A stretch of DNA of 24,000 nucleotides. Source: Thermoplasmatota archaeon (GTDB lineage: Archaea; Thermoplasmatota; E2; DHVEG-1). Position 1 is the stretch's first letter; each line of letters opens with the position of its first letter. Under the pieces are notes generated by a model. The model made no database searches, was not told the origin of the DNA, and saw nothing but the letters and a program-made list of their open reading frames with translations. The stretch spans positions 1 to 24,000 of the forward strand of contig JALOTN010000015.1 of assembly GCA_025457885.1 (NCBI GenBank), given 5' to 3'. Shown here piece by piece: positions 514 to 24,000 of the stretch. The position numbers and the translations under genes are program-made.

Positions 514-2190
514 TTAGGCAGGGATGACCCAGACACCTAACAGTAGTCGCTGGGTGATGATACCCCGGAAATCACTGTAGGGGAGATACCCGCAGCACGG
601 GTACTCACCATAGGTTTCTGTGAGGATTTGTGTCGATCGGTCTTGTCCGATGATTGCACTTACTTCAAGGACTTTTATGGGGAGGAACCGGAAACCAATG
701 GAGGCGGATTTATCCAGACTTGTGATCGAGCCGACCAGCCAGATTCGAGACTTCCCAAGAAACGGGATTTTCACGGGAAGCGTCGCCCATTCGCTCTCTG
801 CTCCCCGGGAATCCTTCGCTTTGGCTTTCACCGTGAATGTCTGCTTGGTATCCCAGGTGTGATTCACAACAAGTGCAGTTCCAGAATCAAACGGCCCCAG
901 CCAGTCGGTGGTCGTTCCATCACCCCAGTCCACAAAATAGGACACCTGCTGGTCCTCCGGGTCGAGAGATACAAGAGTATATTCATAGGTGACCCCTGGT
1001 TTTCCCTTCGCTGGTCCGCTGATTGATGGTTTGGCAGGAGCAGAGTTATTCGTTATCCCCAGATATTCCCTTAGAAACTCATCCCAGTGGGTGTTCATAG
1101 CAAAATTCGTCTGTTCATAGGGCGATGGTAATGTCTCATATCGCAGACTATCATTATAATCCCCGGCGCGTCGTGGGAAGTAGATGCTTAACCCATGAAC
1201 AGGATCACCAGAGAGATGATTATTGGCAATCACCGCGGTGTCCATGGTGGTTTGTATTTCTTCCCGGATGCTGGTAAACTCTGGGTCACTGATGGTGCAC
1301 AGATCAAGAAAATCATAAAAATCAATATAATAATCAATGTACCATAACCGGGCATACACCCGTGCACTCTCAAGAGCCGTGGTTATTTGCTCTTGATATT
1401 CATCTAAATGATCCAGGAGGTAAACCGCTAATCCATCGACTGATTCTTCAAGACTTGATACATAACTCAGGTTCGTCGCCGCCATCGTCGTCTTCATCCG
1501 GTCCTGTGTATAATCATGGGGGACGAAATGATCCACCATCGTAACACAAAATTCAGAGGGAGTCATACTTGGGTCATTCTTCAGATCGGTGAATGCGAGC
1601 ACATAAGGCCAATCATACAACATCCCGCATTCTGGGTAAGCGATAAAGTAACGGACACAGGAGTTGATCTGATAGGCTACCTCCATATTCCCCGTCATGC
1701 AGGTCTCAATCCCAAGGATGTCCAGTTTGTCTGCACCGTTGCTGGTGATCTGATTTAATGCATCCAACAGCTCAGGCATGGTGATCATCTGACCCCGTCC
1801 ATGTTCATCCCAACAGACTCCTTGCCAGCCACACCCCTTGTTACTTGAGATGAACAATGCGTAATTCTCTGCAGAAAGCTCATCTTTAATCTTAGTGACG
1901 AACTGGACAAGCGTGGCAGGATCATCCATGCTCGACTCCGCAGGCCATGTCTGTTGCACGAGAGTCGTTCCATCCAGATAATACAGCTTGGTATCCGAAG
2001 CGGTGTTCTGATCGATGAGCACAGAGATTGCAACCTGCTCAGAGGCTCCACATGCTCTGATGTTCTGCAGCACCTGACCTTGCGCTGCTGAGAGATTGTT
2101 AGTGGTAATAGCAGCCTGGCCTACACCACTGACAAACACAGTGATGAGGATCATACAAAACAATTGTTTTCCAAGATGGTTCTTCTTCAT
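514..2190 (-). CDS. secreted clostripain-like (peptidase C11, clan CD) protein with a C-terminal PKD cassette and tail domain
   Basis: 558-aa ORF with an N-terminal signal-like MKKNHLGKQLFCMILITVFVSGVG. It has the C11-like layout: YALFISSNKGCGWQGVCWDEHG, then LDILGIETCMTGNMEVAYQ (Cys codon 1699-1701). The PKD cassette is GPAKGKPGVTYEY...YFVDWGDGTTTDWLGPF...KAKAKDSRGAESEW (nt 763-1038). A TAGGGG SD-like motif lies at 2198-2203, and an oligo-T run follows the stop on the coding strand. Confidence 0.8.
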   Translation of the reverse strand: MKKNHLGKQLFCMILITVFVSGVGQAAITTNNLSAAQGQVLQNIRACGASEQVAISVLIDQNTASDTKLYYLDGTTLVQQTWPAESSMDDPATLVQFVTKIKDELSAENYALFISSNKGCGWQGVCWDEHGRGQMITMPELLDALNQITSNGADKLDILGIETCMTGNMEVAYQINSCVRYFIAYPECGMLYDWPYVLAFTDLKNDPSMTPSEFCVTMVDHFVPHDYTQDRMKTTMAATNLSYVSSLEESVDGLAVYLLDHLDEYQEQITTALESARVYARLWYIDYYIDFYDFLDLCTISDPEFTSIREEIQTTMDTAVIANNHLSGDPVHGLSIYFPRRAGDYNDSLRYETLPSPYEQTNFAMNTHWDEFLREYLGITNNSAPAKPSISGPAKGKPGVTYEYTLVSLDPEDQQVSYFVDWGDGTTTDWLGPFDSGTALVVNHTWDTKQTFTVKAKAKDSRGAESEWATLPVKIPFLGKSRIWLVGSITSLDKSASIGFRFLPIKVLEVSAIIGQDRSTQILTETYGEYPCCGYLPYSDFRGIITQRLLLGVWVIPA

Positions 2191-2472: not shown

Positions 2473-4173
2473 ATGAGTGTGGGGACCATGGAGTCAACAG
2501 AGCAAGTAACCAAGGATTTTATCCGGGAAATCATTGATGAGGACAACAAAACGAATAAGTACAATGGTAGGGTCCATACCCGATTTCCCCCGGAACCGAA
2601 CGGGTACCTCCATATCGGTCATGCGAAATCCATCTGCCTGAATTTCGGAATCGCTGAGGAATACAAAGGCTTCTGTAACCTCCGGTTCGATGACACAAAC
2701 CCAGCCAAAGAGGAGCAGGAGTACGTCCAGTCCATCATCGATAACGTTAAATGGCTTGGCTTTGACTGGGAGGATCGTTTGTTCTTCGCATCCGATTATT
2801 TTCCTCAGATGTACGAGTATGCCCTGCAACTGATAAAAACAGGGAAAGCGTATGTCGATGATCTCCCTGCGGATCAGATCACGGAATATCGTGGGAACCT
2901 GACAAAACCTGGGAAGAACAGCCCGTTTCGAGACCGCTCCATCGAGGAGAACCTTGATTTATTCCAACGGATGAAGGCAGGGGAGTTTGCTGATGGTCAG
3001 AAAGTCCTGCGTGCGAAAATCGACATGAGTCATCCGAACCTGAACATGCGCGATCCTGTGATGTATCGGATCCTGCATGCGAGCCATCATCGGTCTGGTG
3101 ATGCTTGGTGTATTTACCCGATGTACGACTGGGCGCATGGCCTGGAGGATTCTCTCGAAGGGATTACTCATTCTATCTGTACTCTTGAGTTTGAGAATCA
3201 TCGACCCTTATATGATTGGTTCCTGGATGCCCTGGGGGTGTATCATCCGCAGCAGATTGAGTTCGCCCGGTTGAATCTGACTTATACCGTGATGAGTAAG
3301 CGGTTGCTGCTGCAATTGGTGGATGGTAACTTTGTCTGTGGCTGGGATGATCCTCGTCTGCCCACCATCAGTGGGATGCGTCGTCGAGGCTACTCCCCGT
3401 CAGCGATCCGGTTGTTCTGTAAACGCATTGGTGTTGCAAAATTCAACAGCATCGTTGATTTCGAGTTCCTGGAGCATAACATTCGGGAGGATTTGAATAA
3501 AACAGCCCCTCGGTTCATGGGAGTCCTTCGTCCATTAAAGATCATCATCGATAACTACCCAGCGGGTCAGACCGAGGAGCTAGAGGCGGTCAATAACCCG
3601 GAAGACCCAGGGATGGGATCCCGGAAGATACCCTTCTCACAGACATTGTATATCGAGCAGGATGATTTCATGGAGAACCCACCTAAGGATTATTACCGAC
3701 TCGCGCCAGGTCGAGAGGTTCGTCTCCGATACGCCTATTTCATCAAATGCACCGACGTGATCAAGAAAGATGGAAAACCAATCGAGCTGCATTGCACCTA
3801 TGATCCTGCTACGAAAGGAGGGTACGCACCGGATGGTCGGAAAGTGAAATCCACGATTCATTGGGTGTCAGCATCCCATGCGATACCTGCGGAAACACGG
3901 CTGTATGACCGGTTGTTTACAATTGCGGATCCCGCCGGACAGAAAGGCGCTGATTTCAAAGAGTTCCTCAACCCACATTCCCTTGAAGCGCTTCGTGATT
4001 GCCGTGTCGAACCAGCGATTGCAACCCTCAACGCGTTTGATCGTTTCCAGTTTGAACGTCTGGGGTATTTCTGTGTCGACCCATCGACAACGAAGAACGC
4101 ACTGGTGTTGAACCGCACGGTTGAACTGCGTGACTCCTGGGCGAAACACCAGAAAACCGCACAAAAGAAATAA
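2473..4173 (+). CDS. glnS: glutamine--tRNA ligase (GlnRS), bacterial-type class I aaRS
   Basis: 566-aa ORF. HIGH signature LHIGHAK (CAT ATC GGT CAT at 2611-2622) and KMSKS-type VMSKR (3289-3303). The N-terminal block [10 protein letters not shown]...[44 protein letters not shown] and the C-terminal ELRDSWAK are near-colinear with E. coli GlnS as I recall it. An alternative in-frame start lies at 2488. Confidence 0.95.
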
Positions 4174-7432: not shown

Positions 7433-9103
7433 ATGTTAATCCAAAAGAAAAAAAGAGTAATTTGTACAGGCATGATGCTGGTGCTTACGGCATTTGTTGG
7501 GATATCGACAAATGTAGGTGCGACAGGATATCCACCCGTTGCTGAAGCTGGTGGTCCATATTTTGGTTATGAGTGTGATCCGGCTATTGATTTTGATGGA
7601 TCACTATCATACGACCCAGATGGAACGACATTACAGTATCGTTGGAATATCGATGGGACCTGGTCAGAATGGGGCTATGGACCTGAATATGATTATACCT
7701 ATTTCGATGACTTTTCAGGTTCAATTAGTCTTAATGTAACTGATGGGGATTTAGAGAATGTCGATACTGCTGATGTCGTCATTTTGAATAAACCACCATA
7801 TCTAGATTCAATGTATGGGCCTACAGCACCAATTGGTATTGGTGAGCCCGTCACCATTATCGTAAATTTTTTTGATGGAGCTCCAGATCCTCGTGTTGGA
7901 CCGTCTTCGACAGATACTTTTATCGCTACTTTTCAATGGGGCGATGATACCACTAACGATCCGATTTTATTAGGGGTGGGGGAATTTACAGTTCAGGATT
8001 CCCATACGTATACAGTGCCTGGTTTCTACGATGTTCTTGTTACCATTATCGATGATGATGGCGGAGTATTAGTTGTGAATTGGTACATATGGGTTGGTGG
8101 TGAAAACAGTCCTCAACTGTTTGCTGGACCGGATCGAATCATCGATGAAGGCTCCTGGATTATGAGTTATGCTTTCTTCGCCTTACCTGAGGAAGAAGGA
8201 TTATTCACTGCATTGGTTGATTATGGTGATGGAAATGAGCCACAAGAGGCGAATATTGAATATCTATCCTTGAATCATCAATATCTCGAAAATGGAATGT
8301 ACACCTTAGTGGTTACCATATTTAAAGATGGATCGTTTTATCTCTCTGATGACTCAATTATTACTGTTGTAAATGTTCCACCGACTATTAACTGGATGCT
8401 AGGCCCACCTGATGTTCCTATCCAAATCGGCAGCACGATTGATTTATATGCGATGTTTTCCGACCTTGGTATCCTAGATAACCAAGTCGCTCTTGTTGAT
8501 TGGGGCGATGGGCAGAGCACTCTATTGGATTTCTATGCCAATGAATTGGGGAGATATGATGTCTCTGAAAATCATCAGTACACAACCGCTGGAGTGTACA
8601 TGATAACCCTTACAGTAACCGATGATGATGGTGGTTCTGACTCTGAAAGTCTCGCATACTATGTTGTAGTGTATGACCCGACCGCTGGATTTGTCACTGG
8701 TGGTGGATGGATTATGGCTCCTGCGGGATCCTATCCTTCAGATCCGACCCTAACTGGAAAAGCCACGTTTGGTTTTGTCTCAAAATATAAAAAAGGACAG
8801 AGTTACCCGACTGGTAACACCGAATTCCAATTCCACGTGGCAGGTATGAATTTCCACTCGCACACATATGAGTGGTTAGTCATTGCAGGTCCATTGGCCA
8901 AATATAAAGGAACTGGAACAATAAACGGTGAGGGTAATTACGGGTTCCTGATCACGGCTAGAGACGGTCAGATTACCGGAGGCGGCGGTATCGATACATT
9001 CAGAATAAAAATCTGGGATGAAAATAATCCTGATCTGATTGTATTTGACAACATTGATGACACCGCATTAAATGGCGGTCAGATAACCATTCACAAAGCC
9101 TAA
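7433..9103 (+). CDS. secreted PKD-array protein (four PKD-like domains plus a C-terminal GGGW...GGQITIH beta-sandwich module)
   Basis: 556-aa ORF with a signal peptide (MLIQKKKRVICTGMMLVLTAFVG). PKD-type motifs: AGGPYFG...FDGSLSYDPDG, FQWGDDTT...HTYTVPGFYDVLVTIIDDDGG, VDWGDGQS...HQYTTAGVYMITLTVTDDDGG. It is colinear with the next gene over about 410 aa. Confidence 0.85.
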   Translation: MLIQKKKRVICTGMMLVLTAFVGISTNVGATGYPPVAEAGGPYFGYECDPAIDFDGSLSYDPDGTTLQYRWNIDGTWSEWGYGPEYDYTYFDDFSGSISLNVTDGDLENVDTADVVILNKPPYLDSMYGPTAPIGIGEPVTIIVNFFDGAPDPRVGPSSTDTFIATFQWGDDTTNDPILLGVGEFTVQDSHTYTVPGFYDVLVTIIDDDGGVLVVNWYIWVGGENSPQLFAGPDRIIDEGSWIMSYAFFALPEEEGLFTALVDYGDGNEPQEANIEYLSLNHQYLENGMYTLVVTIFKDGSFYLSDDSIITVVNVPPTINWMLGPPDVPIQIGSTIDLYAMFSDLGILDNQVALVDWGDGQSTLLDFYANELGRYDVSENHQYTTAGVYMITLTVTDDDGGSDSESLAYYVVVYDPTAGFVTGGGWIMAPAGSYPSDPTLTGKATFGFVSKYKKGQSYPTGNTEFQFHVAGMNFHSHTYEWLVIAGPLAKYKGTGTINGEGNYGFLITARDGQITGGGGIDTFRIKIWDENNPDLIVFDNIDDTALNGGQITIHKA

Positions 9104-9205: not shown

Positions 9206-9246
9206 TTTCCAAGACAAAAGAGTACATTGTGGTGGAGGTAGAAACA

Positions 9247-10740
9247 ATGGTTTTTGAGAAGAAAAAAACAAGTTTTCTGATTGCGCTACTCTTTCTGTTG
9301 ACCGCTTTTGTCGGTATGCAGACATCTGTTGTTGCAGCAGGAGAACCCCCTATACCTGAAGCCGGTGGTCCATACATCGGTGAGGAATGTTATCCGATGC
9401 TGCTGGATGCATCAGGGTCCTATGACCCTGAGGGAGATTTGTTGACATATCGATGGTGCATCGATGGAGTATGGATAGAGAATGGGAATTATCCGTATAT
9501 CGAATGGACCTGGCATGATGAGTTCTCTGGTGAACTTATCCTAGAAGTCTCTGATGGAAGCACCATTGTTTCTGATACAGCCTCCGTCTCCATCGTCAAT
9601 GTACCCCCTGTGATTCTCGCTTTTAATGCTCCCTCAGAGGTAGATGAAGACACCGAGTTTCTCGTCCAAGTCAACTTCTTTGATGGATTACCTGATCCCC
9701 GTTCTCAGACCGCGTCTATGGATTCGTTCATGGTTACCTTCTCTTGGGATGATGGGACTTCCGATGAGTTATTTTTAGGTGCAGGGGAGTTTTCTACTGG
9801 GATGTCCCATGTCTATGAAGAAGCAGGGATCTATCAGGTACTGATCATACTTGCTGATTCAGATGGAGGAGAAACCCGCGCTGAATGGACCGTCGTCGTC
9901 GGGGAGGTAGCTTCTGTCGACGCTGGGCCTGATGCCATCATCGATGAAGGATCGATGTTTGTCAGCTCAGGGTTCCTTGGTGATTCAGATTCAGTAACCT
10001 ACACTGCTTTTGTTGATTACTATGATGATTCTGGAGCGATTCCCCTTGAGTTGTATCCGGGGAACACCTTTGATTTACGCCACCAGTACCTTGAGGATGG
10101 AATATATACCGTTCTTGTTATGGTTTTCAATGATGGGATGGAATATGGGGAGGACACCGTCGAGGTGACTGTTAACAATATTGATCCCTCGTTTGAGTCT
10201 CTTTCCTTGTCTACGAGTGATGCTGTGCAGCCCAATACTGCTGTTCAAGTGACTGGGTTGTTTTCTGATCCTGGAATCCTTGATGCCCATACGATAACAT
10301 TTGATTGGGGGGATGGGTCTTCTGTTGCGACAGATCTTGATGGCGGTGACTTTGTTCTGAGTGGGTCTCATAGCTATGCGAAGGCAGGGAACTATACCGT
10401 TCTCGTCACTATCCTGGATGATGATGGTGGGATGTGTAGTCGATCGGTGTTGGTGGTGGTCAAGGCTCCCCCGGCTCCATCGTCTCCTCCATCAACTGAC
10501 AGCATTAAAGGATATATCGCTGGTTTGAAGATCCCGCTTGGTCTGAAATTTAGTTTGTTCTCAGCTTTGGATATCGTTCCGCATCTTTTAAAACATCATA
10601 TGATTAGAGCTGCGATGAATCAATTACGAGCATTTATTCATTTTGTCGATGCACAGAGCGGGAAGCGGTTGACACAGGAGCAGGCTCATATTTTGATGAA
10701 CGCTGCTCGTTCGATCATCCAATCATTGAACGTACGGTGA
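9247..10740 (+). CDS. secreted PKD-array protein, paralogue of 7433..9103, with a proline linker and an alpha-helical C-terminal tail
   Basis: The track ORF starts at GTG 9229. I prefer ATG 9247, which has GGAGGT 7 nt upstream and begins with the signal peptide MVFEKKKTSFLIALLFLLTAFVG. Same four-domain order as its neighbour (AGGPYIG..., FSWDDGTS..., FDWGDGSS...HSYAKAGNYTVLVTILDDDGG). It then diverges into KAPPAPSSPPS plus a helical ...AAMNQLRAFIHFVDAQSGKRLTQEQAHILMNAARSIIQSL. Confidence 0.85.
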   Translation: MVFEKKKTSFLIALLFLLTAFVGMQTSVVAAGEPPIPEAGGPYIGEECYPMLLDASGSYDPEGDLLTYRWCIDGVWIENGNYPYIEWTWHDEFSGELILEVSDGSTIVSDTASVSIVNVPPVILAFNAPSEVDEDTEFLVQVNFFDGLPDPRSQTASMDSFMVTFSWDDGTSDELFLGAGEFSTGMSHVYEEAGIYQVLIILADSDGGETRAEWTVVVGEVASVDAGPDAIIDEGSMFVSSGFLGDSDSVTYTAFVDYYDDSGAIPLELYPGNTFDLRHQYLEDGIYTVLVMVFNDGMEYGEDTVEVTVNNIDPSFESLSLSTSDAVQPNTAVQVTGLFSDPGILDAHTITFDWGDGSSVATDLDGGDFVLSGSHSYAKAGNYTVLVTILDDDGGMCSRSVLVVVKAPPAPSSPPSTDSIKGYIAGLKIPLGLKFSLFSALDIVPHLLKHHMIRAAMNQLRAFIHFVDAQSGKRLTQEQAHILMNAARSIIQSLNVR

Positions 10741-14294: not shown

Positions 14295-15566
14295 CTAGGA
14301 GACCCCGATGACGAAGAACAACAGAACTGTCCCCGAACTGGCTGTCTCTGTCACACCGACTGCTGCAGTGATATCCGCTTTTCCAAAACCAACGACGATA
14401 TCCTTGACGGTGACAGATTCACCAGCAGGAATGCTGGGGATTGTTCCGGTTTTGTCTTTTCCCACAAAAATCAAGTTCCCATCAACGGTGATGGACCAAG
14501 CGACATCGGTTAACTCAGTTGTTCCGATGTTCTTGATTTCAGCTGAAACCCCAAAACCACCCTTTATTGTGATCTGCACCGGTAACGCATGTTCGATGGT
14601 AAAGACACTTGTTTTTTCCGTTTCTTGGTTTCCTGCGTTATCCACCGAATAGAAGCGGATTGTATGAGCCCCATCCGTAGTCACCACAAAGGAACTAGTA
14701 TATGCTGTCCATTCCCCATCATCAAGTTTGTATTGGGTATAGTTCACACCAGATTGAGCATCCGTCGCACTCAGTGAGACGGTGACATCGCTTGTATAGA
14801 TATCACCAACCAAGCTTCCCTCCAGGGTACAGGTGGTGACTGGTGGGGTGGTGTCTTCAGTACCAGAGCCGGTGACTTCGAAATCATCCATGAAGAACGC
14901 GTACACATCATAGGAAAAGACATGGATAGCGATGTAAATGGATTGTCCTGAATACGCGGAGATGTCAAAGCTGTATTCTGTCCAGGTGACAGGTGCATCG
15001 TTATTCACCTGTAGAATGGTGAAGCTTGTCGGATCGGTATCCGTTGTCGAGACGCCGATTTCGAAATCCTCAAGACCGTATTGGTCATCCAATGATCGAG
15101 CCCATAGAGAAACCGCATCATAGGATGTTGCGGTCAGCTGCGGGGTGAACAACCAATCATCATTTGGCGCCATCGCAGTCACCGTATCCCAACAAGAGAT
15201 GTATTTTTCCCCGGTATGAGCGTCAAAGGTCTCATCGAGTGGTGGTGTGGTCTGCGTTGGGTTGAAGATCATATACGACCCAGTGTAATACTCATTGGGC
15301 CAGTCAACACCCTCCATGCCCCAGGTCTGACCGCCTTCACCATCAAAGGTCGTCCATGGTGGGAAATCATCAACAATGAAATCCTCATAGGTCTCAAAAC
15401 TATCGGAGAACAAGATATCCCGGTCTGATATGGCGGTGTTTTGTCGACTCTGGTTCTCAGGATTTGTTTTTGTGATTGTGTTCATTGCCGATGCTGGTAG
15501 GATGAGGGCACAGGCGATACAACAGACGAAAGCTGCCTTTCCAATATTCTTCTTATATTTTTTCAT
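14295..15566 (-). CDS. secreted choice-of-anchor-J domain protein with an Ig-like (OmpL47-type) domain and a CARDB-like C-terminal domain
   Basis: 423-aa ORF with a signal peptide. FSDSFE...DDFPPWTTFDGEGGQTW...NDDWLFTPQL...FEIGVST...SAYSGQSIYIAIHV is the choice-of-anchor-J pattern (nt 14868-15419). SATDAQSGVNYTQYKLDDGEW...IRFYSVDNAGNQE is the Ig-like domain (14592-14855). The C-terminal IKGGFGVSAEIKNIGTTELTDVAW...VGFG...LLFFVIGVS lies at 14298-14585. Confidence 0.8.
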   Translation of the reverse strand: MKKYKKNIGKAAFVCCIACALILPASAMNTITKTNPENQSRQNTAISDRDILFSDSFETYEDFIVDDFPPWTTFDGEGGQTWGMEGVDWPNEYYTGSYMIFNPTQTTPPLDETFDAHTGEKYISCWDTVTAMAPNDDWLFTPQLTATSYDAVSLWARSLDDQYGLEDFEIGVSTTDTDPTSFTILQVNNDAPVTWTEYSFDISAYSGQSIYIAIHVFSYDVYAFFMDDFEVTGSGTEDTTPPVTTCTLEGSLVGDIYTSDVTVSLSATDAQSGVNYTQYKLDDGEWTAYTSSFVVTTDGAHTIRFYSVDNAGNQETEKTSVFTIEHALPVQITIKGGFGVSAEIKNIGTTELTDVAWSITVDGNLIFVGKDKTGTIPSIPAGESVTVKDIVVGFGKADITAAVGVTETASSGTVLLFFVIGVS

Positions 15567-17082: not shown

Positions 17083-19797
17083 TTAATATCCAACCAGGTG
17101 GCGGAGAATGGGGAAGAGGTTCGGGAACATCCCGAGCAGCTGCTGGATGAACCCAAGCAGCGTGAATTTGTATTCCGTTGGCATGGCAACGGTGAGTTCT
17201 CCCCAGTCGCTTTCCGAGTTCATCGAGTCCTTTGCTTTGACCTTCACGGTGTAGGACCCCTCGTCTGCCCAGGAATGGGTCTGATGGATCTGGGTGCCTG
17301 AGAGATACGGTCCTAGCCAGTCCGTGGTGGTCCCATCGCCCCAGTCCACAAAGTAGTAGATGGTCTGATCCTGAGCATCAGTTGAGACCATGTTGAACAA
17401 ATAGGGGTTTCCTGGTTTTCCCTCTGCAGGTCCAGTGACCTCAGGGACCGTTGGTGGTGTGTTATCGGTGATGGTGACGGGTAATTCCTCAGACCAGCCG
17501 CTGCCAGCTCCCCAGACGTCACGGGCTTTGACTTTCACGGTATAGGACCCAAGCACCGTCCAGGTGTGTTTCCCGGTCGCGGTCGCCCCAGAAGAATATG
17601 GTCCAAGCCATCCGCTGTTGCTGCCATCGCCCCAGTCGAACAGGTAGAAGATCTCCTCATTGTCCGGCTCAGTGGCTTGAGAGGTATAGCTGTATTCGAC
17701 GTTCCAGATCCCCAGGGTTGGTCCCACGGGTTTCGAGGGTGTTGTCGGAGGGAGACTTGGATGAGGTGTCCGAAGCATCTGAGCGGGGTCGCCGAAGAGG
17801 AGGCAGCATTGGACGATCTCTCGCCATGTTCCACCATCCCAGTCGATCATCGGTGCCATCATGTCCTTTGAATGAGCATGGGACCGGCCGATCTGCCAGT
17901 TCCCAAGATCAAGGGAGAGGTTCTCCACATCAAGGAAGAATCGCCAGAACTCTTTGGTCTGGAACGCGCTACTGGAATTTGTGCAGTAGAGGTTTCCCCA
18001 GCCGTAGCCTGTGTTATAGACACAGCCGAAGGCAAGCTCGACATCAGAGTGGAACAGCATGGTTTCCAGCACCCCGTCATCGCCATCGTTGAAATCACCG
18101 CAGTGGCAGCCGTAATCATGGATGAAGAACGGACGGGTATTATGGTAATCAGATTCCCAGTCATCCGCGTAGACATCCAGGGACATCTGGTTATCTGCAT
18201 GGGCGATCCCACTGATGATTGTGACAAGGTCGTTGTTGATTGCATCTCTGAATCCGGAGACTCCTGCTCCGTTCCATCCAGGGTTTGGTGAGGGTGCCTC
18301 GGTGTATTTCACGGAAAGGTTATACATATTCCCGGGGTTGACAAGGTTCCAGGTCTCAAAACCATACTGGAAACCAACCCAGCTGGGGAATTGATCCGGA
18401 TCAGGGCCAAGCCATTCATTCGTCCCCTTTATCGCGCTGTAGTCCATGAAATCATCACCCTGGCAGCTCCACCCAGTGTTCCCACCATAGAAAGCGGCGT
18501 TGTCCAGGTATTCCCAATCCGCGCTGTTTGCATAGAAGAAACTCTTCGTCAGCCAGTTAGAGACATCCTGAGGAACATCACAAGTGACTCGACCAACGAA
18601 CAGTTCTGCATAAAAGTCAAACCCACTATCTCCTTCCTCGCCCCATGAGCCATCGGAATCACCATTGAAGTTGTTGTCAAGGTTGCTCCAGTATAAATCG
18701 GAGTCGACGTTTGACTCACCACCTGAGGACATCAGACGAGCAGGGATGTAGTTGGAGTCACCAGCGACAAGGATATACTGTGTTCCCCAGTCCTCGTATG
18801 CGTCTTTACAGAACTCACGGACATGGGCTTGTTGGTCATTGAAGGGGGTTGTCCCAAAGTAATCAGGACATGCGTCGATGTCCTGGACGGTGACTAACGT
18901 GCTGCTCAACCCATCACCCGCATGTTGATCCATGAGACTTTCCCAGTTATAGGGCGTCTCTGTGGTGACGTCCCAGTAATCCAGACCGCTTTGGGTGGTG
19001 GTGATAATCACATAATCATAATTCCCACTTGGGTCACATAACCCACCAGGGTACTCAAGGATCGGCATATCAGCGGTCTCATACAGTGGTAGTATCTCCG
19101 GATTGGCGACAAATGACTGCACGTAGCTAGCATCAGCAGGACTGTCCCGGAAGAATTCACTGACGTAACCAGTCTTCTCAAGAGTAATTGTTACCGTCAT
19201 CGTCGGGTAGAACATCAACGCTCCTGTGCCAGGGGTGTACTGCAACGGGCTTAATCCAAAATCAAGGATTGCATACCCATGGGAGTACCCAACATGATGT
19301 TGCGTGCGAATCTCGGAAGGATAGGGAGTGCTTGCGGAGTAGATCTCTAGATTTTTTTCAAACACCTGTGGCTCAGTACTGCCGAACGGAACAGATTTCT
19401 GATAGGGAAGAACCGGGTGCGTGAGTAAATCGACTGGTGGTGAAACCAATACCGGTGTCCCAGTGACGTGGATGTTGATAACTGCTGTCTTAGGTGGGAG
19501 GAGCAGTTGTATCATCTTCATGGGTAACTGAGGGGCGCCTACTTCGGTGCCTCTCCCAATTAATCCTTGCATGTTCACCAAAGTATATTCGGAACCATCC
19601 GTAGCGATTGTTTGATACTCTGGCTCACGGAAACTCCAGGTATACGTCAATTGAGAGCTGCTTATTAGTCCTTGATTGTTCAAATCCTTTGGGTCAACAA
19701 GTGCTGTTGTTACCGATGTAGTGAGCATCAATACACAAATTGCTACACCAACAACTAGTCTGCCTACTTTAAAATTATGAGTTGTTGTTCTCTTCAT
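17083..19797 (-). CDS. secreted gingipain-like peptidase (family C25, clan CD) with two PKD cassettes and an amphipathic C-terminal tail
   Basis: 904-aa ORF with a signal/anchor (MKRTTTHNFKVGRLVVGVAICVLMLTT). C25 hallmarks: YVIITTT, YILVAGDSNYIPAR, DLYWSNLD, ELFVGRV. The His block is IISGIAHADN (His codon 18199-18201). The Cys block is FIHDYGCHCGDF (Cys codon 18106-18108). PKD cassettes at 17470-17730 and 17182-17442; tail at 17086-17181. Confidence 0.85.
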   Translation of the reverse strand: MKRTTTHNFKVGRLVVGVAICVLMLTTSVTTALVDPKDLNNQGLISSSQLTYTWSFREPEYQTIATDGSEYTLVNMQGLIGRGTEVGAPQLPMKMIQLLLPPKTAVINIHVTGTPVLVSPPVDLLTHPVLPYQKSVPFGSTEPQVFEKNLEIYSASTPYPSEIRTQHHVGYSHGYAILDFGLSPLQYTPGTGALMFYPTMTVTITLEKTGYVSEFFRDSPADASYVQSFVANPEILPLYETADMPILEYPGGLCDPSGNYDYVIITTTQSGLDYWDVTTETPYNWESLMDQHAGDGLSSTLVTVQDIDACPDYFGTTPFNDQQAHVREFCKDAYEDWGTQYILVAGDSNYIPARLMSSGGESNVDSDLYWSNLDNNFNGDSDGSWGEEGDSGFDFYAELFVGRVTCDVPQDVSNWLTKSFFYANSADWEYLDNAAFYGGNTGWSCQGDDFMDYSAIKGTNEWLGPDPDQFPSWVGFQYGFETWNLVNPGNMYNLSVKYTEAPSPNPGWNGAGVSGFRDAINNDLVTIISGIAHADNQMSLDVYADDWESDYHNTRPFFIHDYGCHCGDFNDGDDGVLETMLFHSDVELAFGCVYNTGYGWGNLYCTNSSSAFQTKEFWRFFLDVENLSLDLGNWQIGRSHAHSKDMMAPMIDWDGGTWREIVQCCLLFGDPAQMLRTPHPSLPPTTPSKPVGPTLGIWNVEYSYTSQATEPDNEEIFYLFDWGDGSNSGWLGPYSSGATATGKHTWTVLGSYTVKVKARDVWGAGSGWSEELPVTITDNTPPTVPEVTGPAEGKPGNPYLFNMVSTDAQDQTIYYFVDWGDGTTTDWLGPYLSGTQIHQTHSWADEGSYTVKVKAKDSMNSESDWGELTVAMPTEYKFTLLGFIQQLLGMFPNLFPILRHLVGY

Positions 19798-19879: not shown

Positions 19880-21919
19880 TTAGAGGGGATGTATTCCAAA
19901 AACAAAGACGAGGAATAGTTTTGCTGGAACCGTGGTATTATACGTGATTCCCTCATCACACCCGATGAACAGATTCAGGGTCATTGAGCCAAATCCGACA
20001 GGAGTGATTCTTACAGATTTCGTCAACCCCGGAGGAATTGTTTCCGTTGGTTGAGTAATAAAAACATGGAAGAGGGTTCCACCTTCAAATGAAGTGTTCC
20101 ATTGGATGATGGTCGCTGGAGCATCTCCCCTGTTGGTAATTGAAACGGTAAACCCCAGCCCGCCGGTAACATCCAGAGAAAGCACAGGTGCGATGATGGA
20201 AAGAGTAAAGGGTTCTGACCAGGTGCTCTCTGCACCATGCCAATCCTTTGCCTTCACCAGGATCTCATAGGTTCCGCGGTTAGCCCAGGTGTGGTTCAGA
20301 TGAACCGCTTCGTCTCCAGCGAACGGTCCAAGCCACCCGCTGGTCGTGTTATCCCCCCAATCAATGAAATAAAGGATTTTATCATCGTTCTGATCAGTGG
20401 TTGTGAAGACAAACTCATAAGACACCCCTGGTTTCCCACTTGTTGGCCCCTCAATGAGGGGAATCTGTGGTGGAATGTTTGGGACTTCAATAAAGACCTG
20501 AGTACCATCAGTCGCTATTTGACCAAGATTGTCAATGACGGTGAGGCTGACCGGGTATTCCCCCACCGAAGTATAGGTATGAGTTGGGTTCTGCAGCGGT
20601 GACGTCGTTCCATCCCCAAAGTCCCAGAACCATGAAAACCCTGGGTCACCACCGTAGACGGAGCCGGTGAATTGCACTGGTGAATCCTCAAAACCATAGT
20701 ACGGGCCGTTTGCATCAGCAAGATATTGAATATCACCAAAAGCATAAATAGTCCCATCCCCGGAACCAACAAACAGTTTTCCTGCTGCTAGTGCTGGTGA
20801 TGACTTCGTTGGAAACTGCGTGTTAAAATTATAACTCCAGATCAATGCCCCAGAGTACGCATTCAGACAGACCAGGTAGCTTGTATACCCGCAGCAGGGA
20901 TCAGAGTCAAAATAGAGTTTCCCGTCAGCGATACCCGGTGAGGATTCGACACTCCCGTTGACAAGATAGCTCCACAGAAAACCTCCTGTTTCCTTATCAA
21001 GACACAACATCCTCCCATCGCTCGTCCCAATGTAGACACATCCGTATGCAACCGATGGGGAAGCATGCACTTCACATCCCGCATCATAGCTCCATAGGAT
21101 CCCCCCGGTTTGTGCGTTGAGGCAATAGACGTTGTTATCATTCGCACCAAAGTAGACCTTGCCGTCGTCAATAGTTGGAGAGGAATAAATACCAGAGGTT
21201 GTTACGAACACCCAGAGGAGTTCACCGGTCAGACTGTTCAGACAGACGAAATCTCCATTCACGATACCAGTATATAACCTTCCATCTGCAATCGCTGGTG
21301 AGGAGACAAAAGCACTGTTGGTTTCATATTCCCAGAGGAGACTTCCATCTGCGACATTCAGACTATACAACGATCCGTCACTTGAGCCGAAGAACACCTG
21401 TTCATCGACAACGAGTGGAGAGGTATCGATGATAAAACCAGTTTTAAAAACCCATAAAAGTGAACCATTGACTGCATCCAGACAATACAGATAGGTGTCT
21501 TGTGAGCCGAAAAACACTCTGCCGTTTACCACTGCAGGTGATGAGGTTATCTCACTATTGGTTGAATAGTTCCAAAGCACAGTTCCACTATCCATCTCAA
21601 GACAATAGAGGCTTCGGTCCCATGCTCCGATATAGACTCTCCCATGCGAGACTGCTGGGGAGGATGAAATGATAAAATCGGTCTGATATGTCCAGAGAAT
21701 ATCCGCTGCCTCTGGGGCGGTCGTGGTTGATGCACCTGTATGTGTTGTATCGTGGCGGAACATTGACCACCAATCGTTTCCCACCGGATTCCTCAAATCT
21801 TCAATCTCGGAGGATGATGACAGTAAAGGACTCGCAATCGAAGAACTAGTTAAAATAGTGAAACACAGAAGAGTCAAAGAACATGTTACAAGAGAAATCC
21901 GTCGATGTTTTCCAATCAT
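19880..21919 (-). CDS. secreted PQQ-like beta-propeller protein with two PKD domains and a CARDB-like C-terminal domain
   Basis: The track ORF starts at TTG 21931. The first ATG is 21919 (MIGKHRRISLVTCSLTLLCFTIL). There are eight repeats of ..SSPAV..GRVYFG..D..LYCL....G..LW. These are followed by a classical PKD (FWDFGDGTTS...HTYTSVGEYPVSLTVID), a DWGD-type PKD (YFIDWGDNTTSGWLGPF) and the C-terminal VTGGLGFTVSITNRGDAPATIIQW...VGFG...LFLVFVFGIHPL. Confidence 0.85.
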   Translation of the reverse strand: MIGKHRRISLVTCSLTLLCFTILTSSSIASPLLSSSSEIEDLRNPVGNDWWSMFRHDTTHTGASTTTAPEAADILWTYQTDFIISSSPAVSHGRVYIGAWDRSLYCLEMDSGTVLWNYSTNSEITSSPAVVNGRVFFGSQDTYLYCLDAVNGSLLWVFKTGFIIDTSPLVVDEQVFFGSSDGSLYSLNVADGSLLWEYETNSAFVSSPAIADGRLYTGIVNGDFVCLNSLTGELLWVFVTTSGIYSSPTIDDGKVYFGANDNNVYCLNAQTGGILWSYDAGCEVHASPSVAYGCVYIGTSDGRMLCLDKETGGFLWSYLVNGSVESSPGIADGKLYFDSDPCCGYTSYLVCLNAYSGALIWSYNFNTQFPTKSSPALAAGKLFVGSGDGTIYAFGDIQYLADANGPYYGFEDSPVQFTGSVYGGDPGFSWFWDFGDGTTSPLQNPTHTYTSVGEYPVSLTVIDNLGQIATDGTQVFIEVPNIPPQIPLIEGPTSGKPGVSYEFVFTTTDQNDDKILYFIDWGDNTTSGWLGPFAGDEAVHLNHTWANRGTYEILVKAKDWHGAESTWSEPFTLSIIAPVLSLDVTGGLGFTVSITNRGDAPATIIQWNTSFEGGTLFHVFITQPTETIPPGLTKSVRITPVGFGSMTLNLFIGCDEGITYNTTVPAKLFLVFVFGIHPL
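20735..21703 (-). repeat. eight tandem ~40-aa PQQ/BamB-like propeller blades (intragenic)
   Basis: The blade-terminal Trp codons (cca on the plus strand) fall at 21694, 21574, 21454, 21334, 21214, 21094 and 20974. That is an exact 120-nt period. The next falls at 20839, a 135-nt spacing. Confidence 0.8.
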
Positions 21920-22169
21920 TGTGGTACCCAACTTGAATGATGTTCCATCCTATGTGATATTACCGATGTCCCCTATATAATCTTAACGATTGTTAATACC
22001 GTATTGATGCGATAAAATAAATGGGGATTTTGGTTAAAGATGTACTAAAATGGATGTCCCGACAGAACGGTTTTCCCTTCAGACGAGTAAATGATGTTTT
22101 TAAATGGTGATATCAACCTATTTATAGGAGAACATTGTTATAAAATATGTAACGGAGGAATGAAAAAGT

Positions 22170-23366: not shown

Positions 23367-23409
23367 AAGAATAATGATCTAATTCATAATTTTGTCAAGG
23401 GAAGATAAT

Positions 23410-24000
23410 ATGAATAAGGAACCTCTGATTAGTAAATGGTTAGTGGTTGGAATCATTCTCTTATTTGTTACAATGGCATTTTTACAAACAGGTACAAGCC
23501 AAACGTTAACGGCATATAGAGATATAGTTACAAAAACCTCATACGAGAAACACGCAAATAATATGAATGATATTTTTATCAATTATTCCATCAATAATAA
23601 AGGACGCATACTGAGATTCAATGTTCTTCTTCTTGGAACAAACATCATCTCTTTACCTACACAAAAAATAGAGAAACCCCCAGCCCCAACATCGAAGGGT
23701 AATTGGTTGTTTGTTGGCGGTATTGGACCTGAAAACTATACAAGGATTCAGGATGCGATTAATGCTTCTTCTGATGGTGATACAGTATTTGTCTATAACG
23801 GTATTTATCAGGAAGAACGAATTACGATAAACAAATCTATCACGTTATTTGGTGAGGATAAAAATAATACTATTCTTGATGGACAATATAGTGAAGGTAT
23901 GATCCTTCTTGTGTCATCCTCTGATGTCGTAATTCGTTGTTTTACGTTGAAAAATTGTAAGAGCGGTGGTTTTTATCAGGCAATCTATCTCTGGGGTAAT
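23410..24000 (+). CDS. secreted right-handed parallel beta-helix (NosD/pectin-lyase-fold) protein, 5' partial; runs off the window
   Basis: Not in the ORF track because no stop falls within the window. The frame is open from ATG 23410 to 24000 (197 codons). Signal/anchor KWLVVGIILLFVTMAF. NYTRIQDAINASSDGDTVFVYNGIYQEERITINKSITLFGEDKNNTILDG is the canonical start of NosD-like beta-helix proteins. Confidence 0.75.
   Translation, partial: MNKEPLISKWLVVGIILLFVTMAFLQTGTSQTLTAYRDIVTKTSYEKHANNMNDIFINYSINNKGRILRFNVLLLGTNIISLPTQKIEKPPAPTSKGNWLFVGGIGPENYTRIQDAINASSDGDTVFVYNGIYQEERITINKSITLFGEDKNNTILDGQYSEGMILLVSSSDVVIRCFTLKNCKSGGFYQAIYLWGN

Follow-up and report, generated by a model that had tools for sequence, protein, structure and literature searches.

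CTD-A, an uncatalogued domain that closes exported proteins of Thermoprofundales-type archaea, is probably a cell-surface retention tag

Several described systems place a dedicated module at the end of exported proteins. In the bacterial type IX secretion system (T9SS), the type A C-terminal domain (CTD; TIGR04183 / Por_Secre_tail), a beta-sandwich of ~70-100 amino acids (aa), is the last domain of diverse Sec-exported cargo, gingipain-family peptidases included, and dozens of proteins per genome carry it. In archaea, PGF-CTERM, which is associated with archaeosortase A (ArtA), is a C-terminal tag on secreted surface proteins. CARDB domains (PF07705), all-beta sandwiches of immunoglobulin-like (Ig-like) fold, typically occur as internal tandem repeats, and the NCBIfam name choice-of-anchor denotes cargo domains that are seen with alternative C-terminal anchors. 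Here we analyze a stretch of 24,000 nucleotides from a Thermoplasmatota archaeon (the window; positions 1 to 24,000 of contig JALOTN010000015.1, assembly GCA_025457885.1), in which two secreted proteins, one built of a PQQ-like propeller and PKD domains and the other of a choice-of-anchor J domain, end in a shared domain that we call CTD-A. Judged from sequence, CTD-A, so far absent from domain catalogues, probably serves as a tag for retention at the cell surface.

The similarity of the two tails, from which the first-pass annotation of this DNA had set out, is real and belongs to a family far larger than that pair. Both tails lie where they had been placed and are homologous over their full length (BLASTP E 1e-8, 26% identity), and a hidden Markov model (HMM) built from the two, run against all six-frame open reading frames (ORFs) of the genome that holds the window (2.07 Mb, 100 contigs, 92% complete), recovered 56 proteins, with iteration converging at 59. 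Because the weakest member scores ~1e-17 and the next ORF ~6e-4, the family is clearly bounded. All 59 proteins have a signal-peptide-like N-terminus and carry one copy each, none in tandem; CTD-A is the last domain in 55, ending at most 12 residues before the stop codon, and follows the signal peptide in the other four. The anchors first noticed in the two tails (GG-x-G, I-x-N-x-G, W, GFG and a hydrophobic end) correspond to conserved columns of the family (N20, G22, G37, G66 and G68), and the conserved terminus reads ...FVLGV[K], with lysine as the last residue in 19/55. The earlier remark that a transmembrane (TM) helix with a basic tail is absent from the ends of these proteins was also correct. 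The tail of the window's C11 protein, which had been likened to them as the same style of ending, is a singleton in the genome (phmmer and iteration recovered the query alone) and supplies no third member.

In a profile search covering 1.84 billion representative public proteins, 3,882 protein clusters passed E≤1e-3, of which 2,242 also passed E≤1e-10. The scan proposed on the basis of two tails now counts 59 members in the genome and thousands in its relatives. Public records name these proteins "hypothetical protein" or take the name from the cargo. When the top hits with a single full-length match are considered (140 proteins), the match stops no more than 5 residues short of the C-terminus in 137 of them. 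Two database hits hold two full tandem copies, and five long proteins contain 4-44 matched stretches, each a partial profile and mostly about positions 10-100, which look like ordinary CARDB repeats. The single copies and the terminal position, both in the genome and in the database, speak against the possibility that CTD-A is simply an internal CARDB repeat found at any position in a protein. Taxonomically, CTD-A keeps to a small set of related Thermoplasmatota families. Of 40 relatives compared, 24 belong to the same family and all of them carry it (9-52 matches each), and some genomes of sister families have 1-4 matches; in an even sample of 300 genomes across the phylum it is present in families f1 (35/35), f2 (3/4), f4 (11/11), f9 (9/9) and f20 (1/2), and was not found in the other ~240 genomes.

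The cargo is varied. In the genome it includes PKD proteins (15), PQQ propellers (6), FG-GAP and BNR/sortilin proteins, arylsulfotransferases, and peptidases of families C25 (3), M14 (3), S8, C1, M28 and M20, and 51 terminal copies are spread over at least 28 unrelated cargo families. For 35 of these 51 copies the closest relative among the CTDs is joined to another cargo family, frequently in the adjoining gene, and we therefore attribute the present distribution to domain shuffling. In orthologues CTD-A is kept as strongly as the cargo, and in the choice-of-anchor J protein its last strand is nearly invariant among orthologues at 73-81% identity. The junction lies directly after PKD domains or OmpL47-type barrels, and no linker, cleavage motif or unusual composition was found upstream of CTD-A. 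In four proteins (L015, L051, L056 and L057: a glucose/sorbosone dehydrogenase, an SBP_bac_5 substrate-binding protein and two arylsulfotransferases) the whole domain, hydrophobic strand included, stands right behind the signal peptide, a placement that a signal requiring a free C-terminus would not permit.

AlphaFold2 (AF2), run on an alignment of 54 of the 59 members, predicts a nine-strand beta-sandwich (predicted local distance difference test score, pLDDT, 89.9) whose final strand is made by the hydrophobic ending. A Pfam scan of the same 54 members gives weak CARDB matches in 27 (best E 2.7e-5) and weak CBM_2 and DUF11 matches in a few; the copy on the choice-of-anchor J protein reaches 20.1 bits to CARDB against a gathering cut-off of 22.7, and the copy on the PQQ/PKD protein has no CARDB match. 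No model in NCBIfam release 20 matches CTD-A. A search of PDB sequences gave nothing under E 0.26, with 2L0D among its four weak matches. Foldseek with the CTD-A model against the PDB, the comparison that had been suggested as a route to kinship with T9SS CTDs, returned generic Ig-like sandwiches alone, none below E 1e-3, and we reject such kinship. Because the Pfam matches are weak, NCBIfam is silent and the PDB and Foldseek results are generic, we consider CTD-A a distinct, uncatalogued branch of CARDB-like folds; as modelled, it is a divergent CARDB-like beta-sandwich with neither a Pfam nor an NCBIfam model of its own.

In the last strand of this fold all positions are hydrophobic, whereas all the remaining strands show an alternating pattern of hydrophobic and polar residues. 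The hydrophobic run is ~11 residues long, the mean maximum 19-residue hydropathy of the tails is 1.18, and no basic cluster accompanies it; the ending is predicted to be the final strand of the fold and not a membrane anchor. A structural role is further indicated because the four N-terminal copies keep the strand. The domain as a whole is near-neutral (median pI 6.3) against a very acidic cargo (pI 4.15).

CTD-A shares the genome with other C-terminal modules. Canonical PGF-CTERM endings (...PGF[ED]-TM-basic) occur on 11 proteins, and an ArtA gene (128.8 bits, with the cut-off at 75) is found directly upstream of the gene for an archaetidylserine decarboxylase (G000:C89:21773-23361; L072:1274-2862). 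A second module, tail-B, closes 28-36 ORFs, always at the terminus and including six C25 peptidases; it stands behind the end of a PKD domain and has the consensus ...MPYSY..P...F...LLERFP.AFP.LRHLLGY-COOH (also at loci L073-L092), and AF2 gives it two short helices with modest confidence (pLDDT about 70-76). Genomes of the same genus have 12-46 tail-B proteins each, and none was found in genome G022. No protein in the genome bears two of CTD-A, tail-B and PGF-CTERM. Together, the last-domain bias, the single copies, the portability across cargo, the exclusivity among modules and a position that a T9SS CTD takes in a homologue (see below) fit a sorting or attachment tag.

A further ending and a small exosortase-like gene were seen alongside these modules. 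A third recurrent ending, ...[FI]DW.P...PY[DE]IP..., is present on five secreted ORFs that adjoin CTD genes, one of them the ORF at the edge of the window (23392-24000, plus strand, running on to contig position 25209). A 186-aa gene of the exosortase/archaeosortase family and a gene for a NodC-like glycosyltransferase overlap at the latter's end (G000:C74:284-1980; L071). Kinship of CTD-A with S-layer-like PGF-CTERM proteins was also considered and dropped, as not even weak matches appeared.

The first-pass annotation had speculated that CTD-A could be a T9SS-like sorting or attachment signal, processed by a C25-family enzyme, namely the C25 peptidase encoded in the window beside the PQQ/PKD gene. 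A C-terminal beta-sandwich on Sec cargo that includes three C25 peptidases does recall the gingipains, all CTD-bearing genomes examined also hold C25 genes, and both catalytic residues, His and Cys, are conserved in the window's C25. It is, however, one of 33 C25 ORFs in the genome, and relatives have 18-39 matches each, numbers that fit the published abundance of extracellular C25 peptidases in Thermoprofundales (MBG-D, for Marine Benthic Group D; PMC6461988). CTD genes are not enriched near C25 genes that lack the domain (10/58 against 6.1±2.4 expected, p about 0.09). C25 genes are also present in five of eight related genomes in which CTD-A was not found (G029, G032-G034 and G036). At E≤1e-60, the window's C25 has orthologues in genera g1, g3, g4 and g14 alone; none was found at that threshold in the CTD-bearing genomes G016 and G022 or in families f2 and f3. 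The PorU model NF033707 gives a best score of 81.9 bits against a cut-off of 420, by way of the generic C25 core, and the window's C25 is not among its 30 matches in the genome. No TIGR04183 match was found in the genome, hhalign assigns CTD-A and a bona fide T9SS CTD a probability of 0.07%, four copies are N-terminal, and the host is an archaeon, assumed from its group to have no outer membrane to cross.

The endings of the C25 peptidases themselves bear on this question. Three carry CTD-A, ~20 stop directly after the catalytic domain, and six, the window's included, carry tail-B, so the earlier remark that the adjacent C25 lacks the CTD was right, with tail-B in its place. (The ~20 that stop after the catalytic domain share an ending of their own, ...GDPSL.IGGY.) Nothing supports removal of CTD-A by the adjacent C25; for that enzyme the proposal is largely refuted, and we consider a T9SS-like signal cut by a C25 sortase highly improbable. 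Given the paralogues, the adjacency and phyletic data, the PorU scores and tail-B, the window's C25 is best read as ordinary cargo, one more tagged exo-peptidase rather than a dedicated processing enzyme. The earlier proposal thus divides: a portable, terminal and exclusive tag fits its idea of a sorting or attachment signal, and processing by C25 is unsupported.

Could such a signal serve a dedicated archaeal pathway, by covalent linkage or receptor assembly, in which C25 peptidases have no part? The strong C-terminal bias, the exclusivity with PGF-CTERM and tail-B, the conserved end with its frequent final lysine, a last strand hydrophobic on both faces and a clade restriction as sharp as that of sortase-type systems would all suit a recognition signal, but candidate machinery did not turn up. 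When 241 neighbours of CTD genes were clustered, secreted-protein families alone emerged and no recurrent non-secreted gene. The archaeosortases were rejected as partners: ArtA has its own 11 PGF-CTERM substrates, and the small exosortase-like gene is sporadic (9/41 genomes). With no conserved cleavage motif or linker and with N-terminal copies in existence, we regard a dedicated pathway of this kind as unlikely. We are equally doubtful that CTD-A lacks any role in localization and is instead a module for binding substrates or particles (adhesion like that of carbohydrate-binding modules), or for folding or stabilizing exoenzymes in the manner of pre-peptidase C-terminal (PPC) domains or of the extensions that archaeal subtilases have at their C-terminus. 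Adhesion is a frequent role of CARDB-like and Ig-like folds, the weak CBM_2 and DUF11 matches point the same way, and CTD-A can stand at either end of a protein or on its own; yet proteins other than enzymes, and the substrate-binding protein of a transporter, are also among its cargo, a terminal bias of 93-98% together with exclusivity with two other terminal modules is hard to explain in these terms, and PPC (PF04151) is not among the Pfam families matched by the 54 members (E≤1).

We lean instead towards CTD-A as a retained, non-covalent module of envelope retention. The domain is specific to its lineage and folds independently, and Thermoprofundales-type archaea attach it, nearly always in last position, to a wide range of Sec-exported proteins; on this reading it would stay on the mature protein rather than being cleaved off, and would bind an envelope component non-covalently, such that exoproteins remain at the cell envelope. 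Its presence on an ABC-type (ATP-binding cassette) substrate-binding protein, which needs cell association, counts for retention. Several points weigh against this reading. Retention is inferred from architecture, and what holds the substrate-binding protein may instead be an N-terminal anchor that is not cleaved. The hydrophobicity pattern of the last strand, unlike that of any other strand, hints at an interaction, and ORFs consisting of a signal peptide and CTD-A alone exist. Nor does ArtA, the sporadic exosortase-like gene or any recurrent neighbour offer a partner for retention, the neighbour clustering telling here as it does above. More tentatively, CTD-A and, separately, tail-B might be address labels of undescribed surface-display pathways of Thermoprofundales, each with a dedicated receptor or enzyme, a possibility that we consider rather improbable.

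The features of the window are collected in the table. Between 14.3 and 21.9 kb, three signal-peptide proteins (choice-of-anchor J, C25 and PQQ/PKD) are all encoded on the minus strand. The signal peptide of the PQQ/PKD protein is readable in its sequence, and an ATG four codons into the TTG-started ORF is the likelier start. Orthologues of the window's proteins are found in records titled Thermoplasmatota or Thermoplasmatales archaeon metagenome-assembled genomes (MAGs), those of the choice-of-anchor J protein in Thermoplasmatota MAGs. The order C25, DUF996, small ORF, choice-of-anchor J, PRC barrel is syntenic in one relative, where the PQQ gene is not present.

Features of the window (positions of the 24,000-nucleotide stretch) with the matches or models that describe them
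Feature	Position	Strand	Evidence
CTD-A domain, 103 aa, end of the PQQ-propeller/PKD protein	19883..20191	-	HMM envelope 581-683 of 683; AF2 all-beta, pLDDT 89.9
Secreted PQQ-like beta-propeller + 2 PKD + CTD-A, 683 aa from TTG	19880..21931	-	Pfam PQQ_2, Beta-prop_ACSF4, PKD_4
CTD-A domain, 96 aa, end of the choice-of-anchor J protein	14298..14585	-	HMM envelope 327-422 of 423 (positions given here are residues 328-423)
Secreted choice-of-anchor J + OmpL47-type barrel + CTD-A, 423 aa	14295..15566	-	NCBIfam NF038128, NF047446
Secreted C25 (gingipain-family) peptidase, propeptide, 2 PKD, tail-B	17083..19797	-	Pfam Peptidase_C25 1.6e-18, Propeptide_C25
Tail-B of the window's C25: PKD-domain end + ~30-aa C-terminal tail (...FPxxFPxLRHLxGY-COOH)	17086..17229	-	
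Secreted C11 (clostripain-like) + PKD protein, ~95-aa tail unrelated to CTD-A	514..2190	-	weak clostripain match

The window as a whole forms a secretome island, and no fewer than five distinct C-terminal endings occur in it. Two paralogous PKD-rich secreted proteins (7433-9103 and 9229-10740, both on the plus strand) have yet other C-termini: one ends in a post-COAP-1 domain (NF041523, 1e-10), and the terminal region of the other resembles FIMAH weakly, at a score under the cut-off (E 0.0034). The window also encodes a bacterial-type glutaminyl-tRNA synthetase (2473-4173, plus strand; NF011291, 865 bits) within this archaeal genome.

Thermoprofundales are among the most abundant archaea of marine sediments. 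They are thought to degrade detrital protein by means of extracellular C25 and C11 peptidases (PMC6461988; PMC9123169), and whether such exo-peptidases are released or retained at the cell decides who gains the products of hydrolysis. CTD-A, borne by ~55 exported proteins per genome or ~3% of genes, is an obvious candidate for such control, and tail-B marks ~30 further proteins; neither has a Pfam or NCBIfam model or a description in the literature that we searched. Should such surface-display pathways exist, a dedicated receptor or enzyme would bring ~3% of the proteome to the cell envelope and keep it there, in a manner analogous in function to T9SS CTD/sortase systems and evolutionarily unrelated to them, which would explain how abundant sediment archaea keep their exo-peptidases cell-bound. 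Defining CTD-A would also improve the annotation of thousands of "hypothetical" metagenomic proteins, and CTD-A fusions would give a concrete handle on the envelopes of uncultured archaea.

Among the described systems, PGF-CTERM resembles CTD-A as a C-terminal tag of archaeal secreted surface proteins, but CTD-A is a folded domain of 100 aa, has no PGF motif, TM helix or basic tail, and is found on five times as many proteins. CARDB shares its all-beta Ig-like sandwich, and the nearest solved sequence match, 2L0D, is a domain of a Methanosarcina cell-surface protein; in contrast to CARDB, CTD-A is single and terminal, its last strand is fully hydrophobic, and both window copies stay under the gathering cut-off of that family. 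The T9SS type A CTD is matched in size, fold, terminal position, breadth of Sec cargo and number of cargo proteins per genome, whereas at the level of sequence and structure the two part: none of the 54 members matches PF18962 (E≤1), no T9SS CTD is among the top 50 structural matches of the CTD-A model, and no protein exceeds the PorU cut-off (other T9SS components were not searched for). The archaeal host and the N-terminal copies likewise set CTD-A apart from that system. CTD-A acts as a further alternative for choice-of-anchor cargo, yet is not among the anchors of NCBIfam release 20. In a Bacteroidales homologue of the choice-of-anchor J cargo, a T9SS type A CTD occupies exactly the place that CTD-A has in the archaeal protein.

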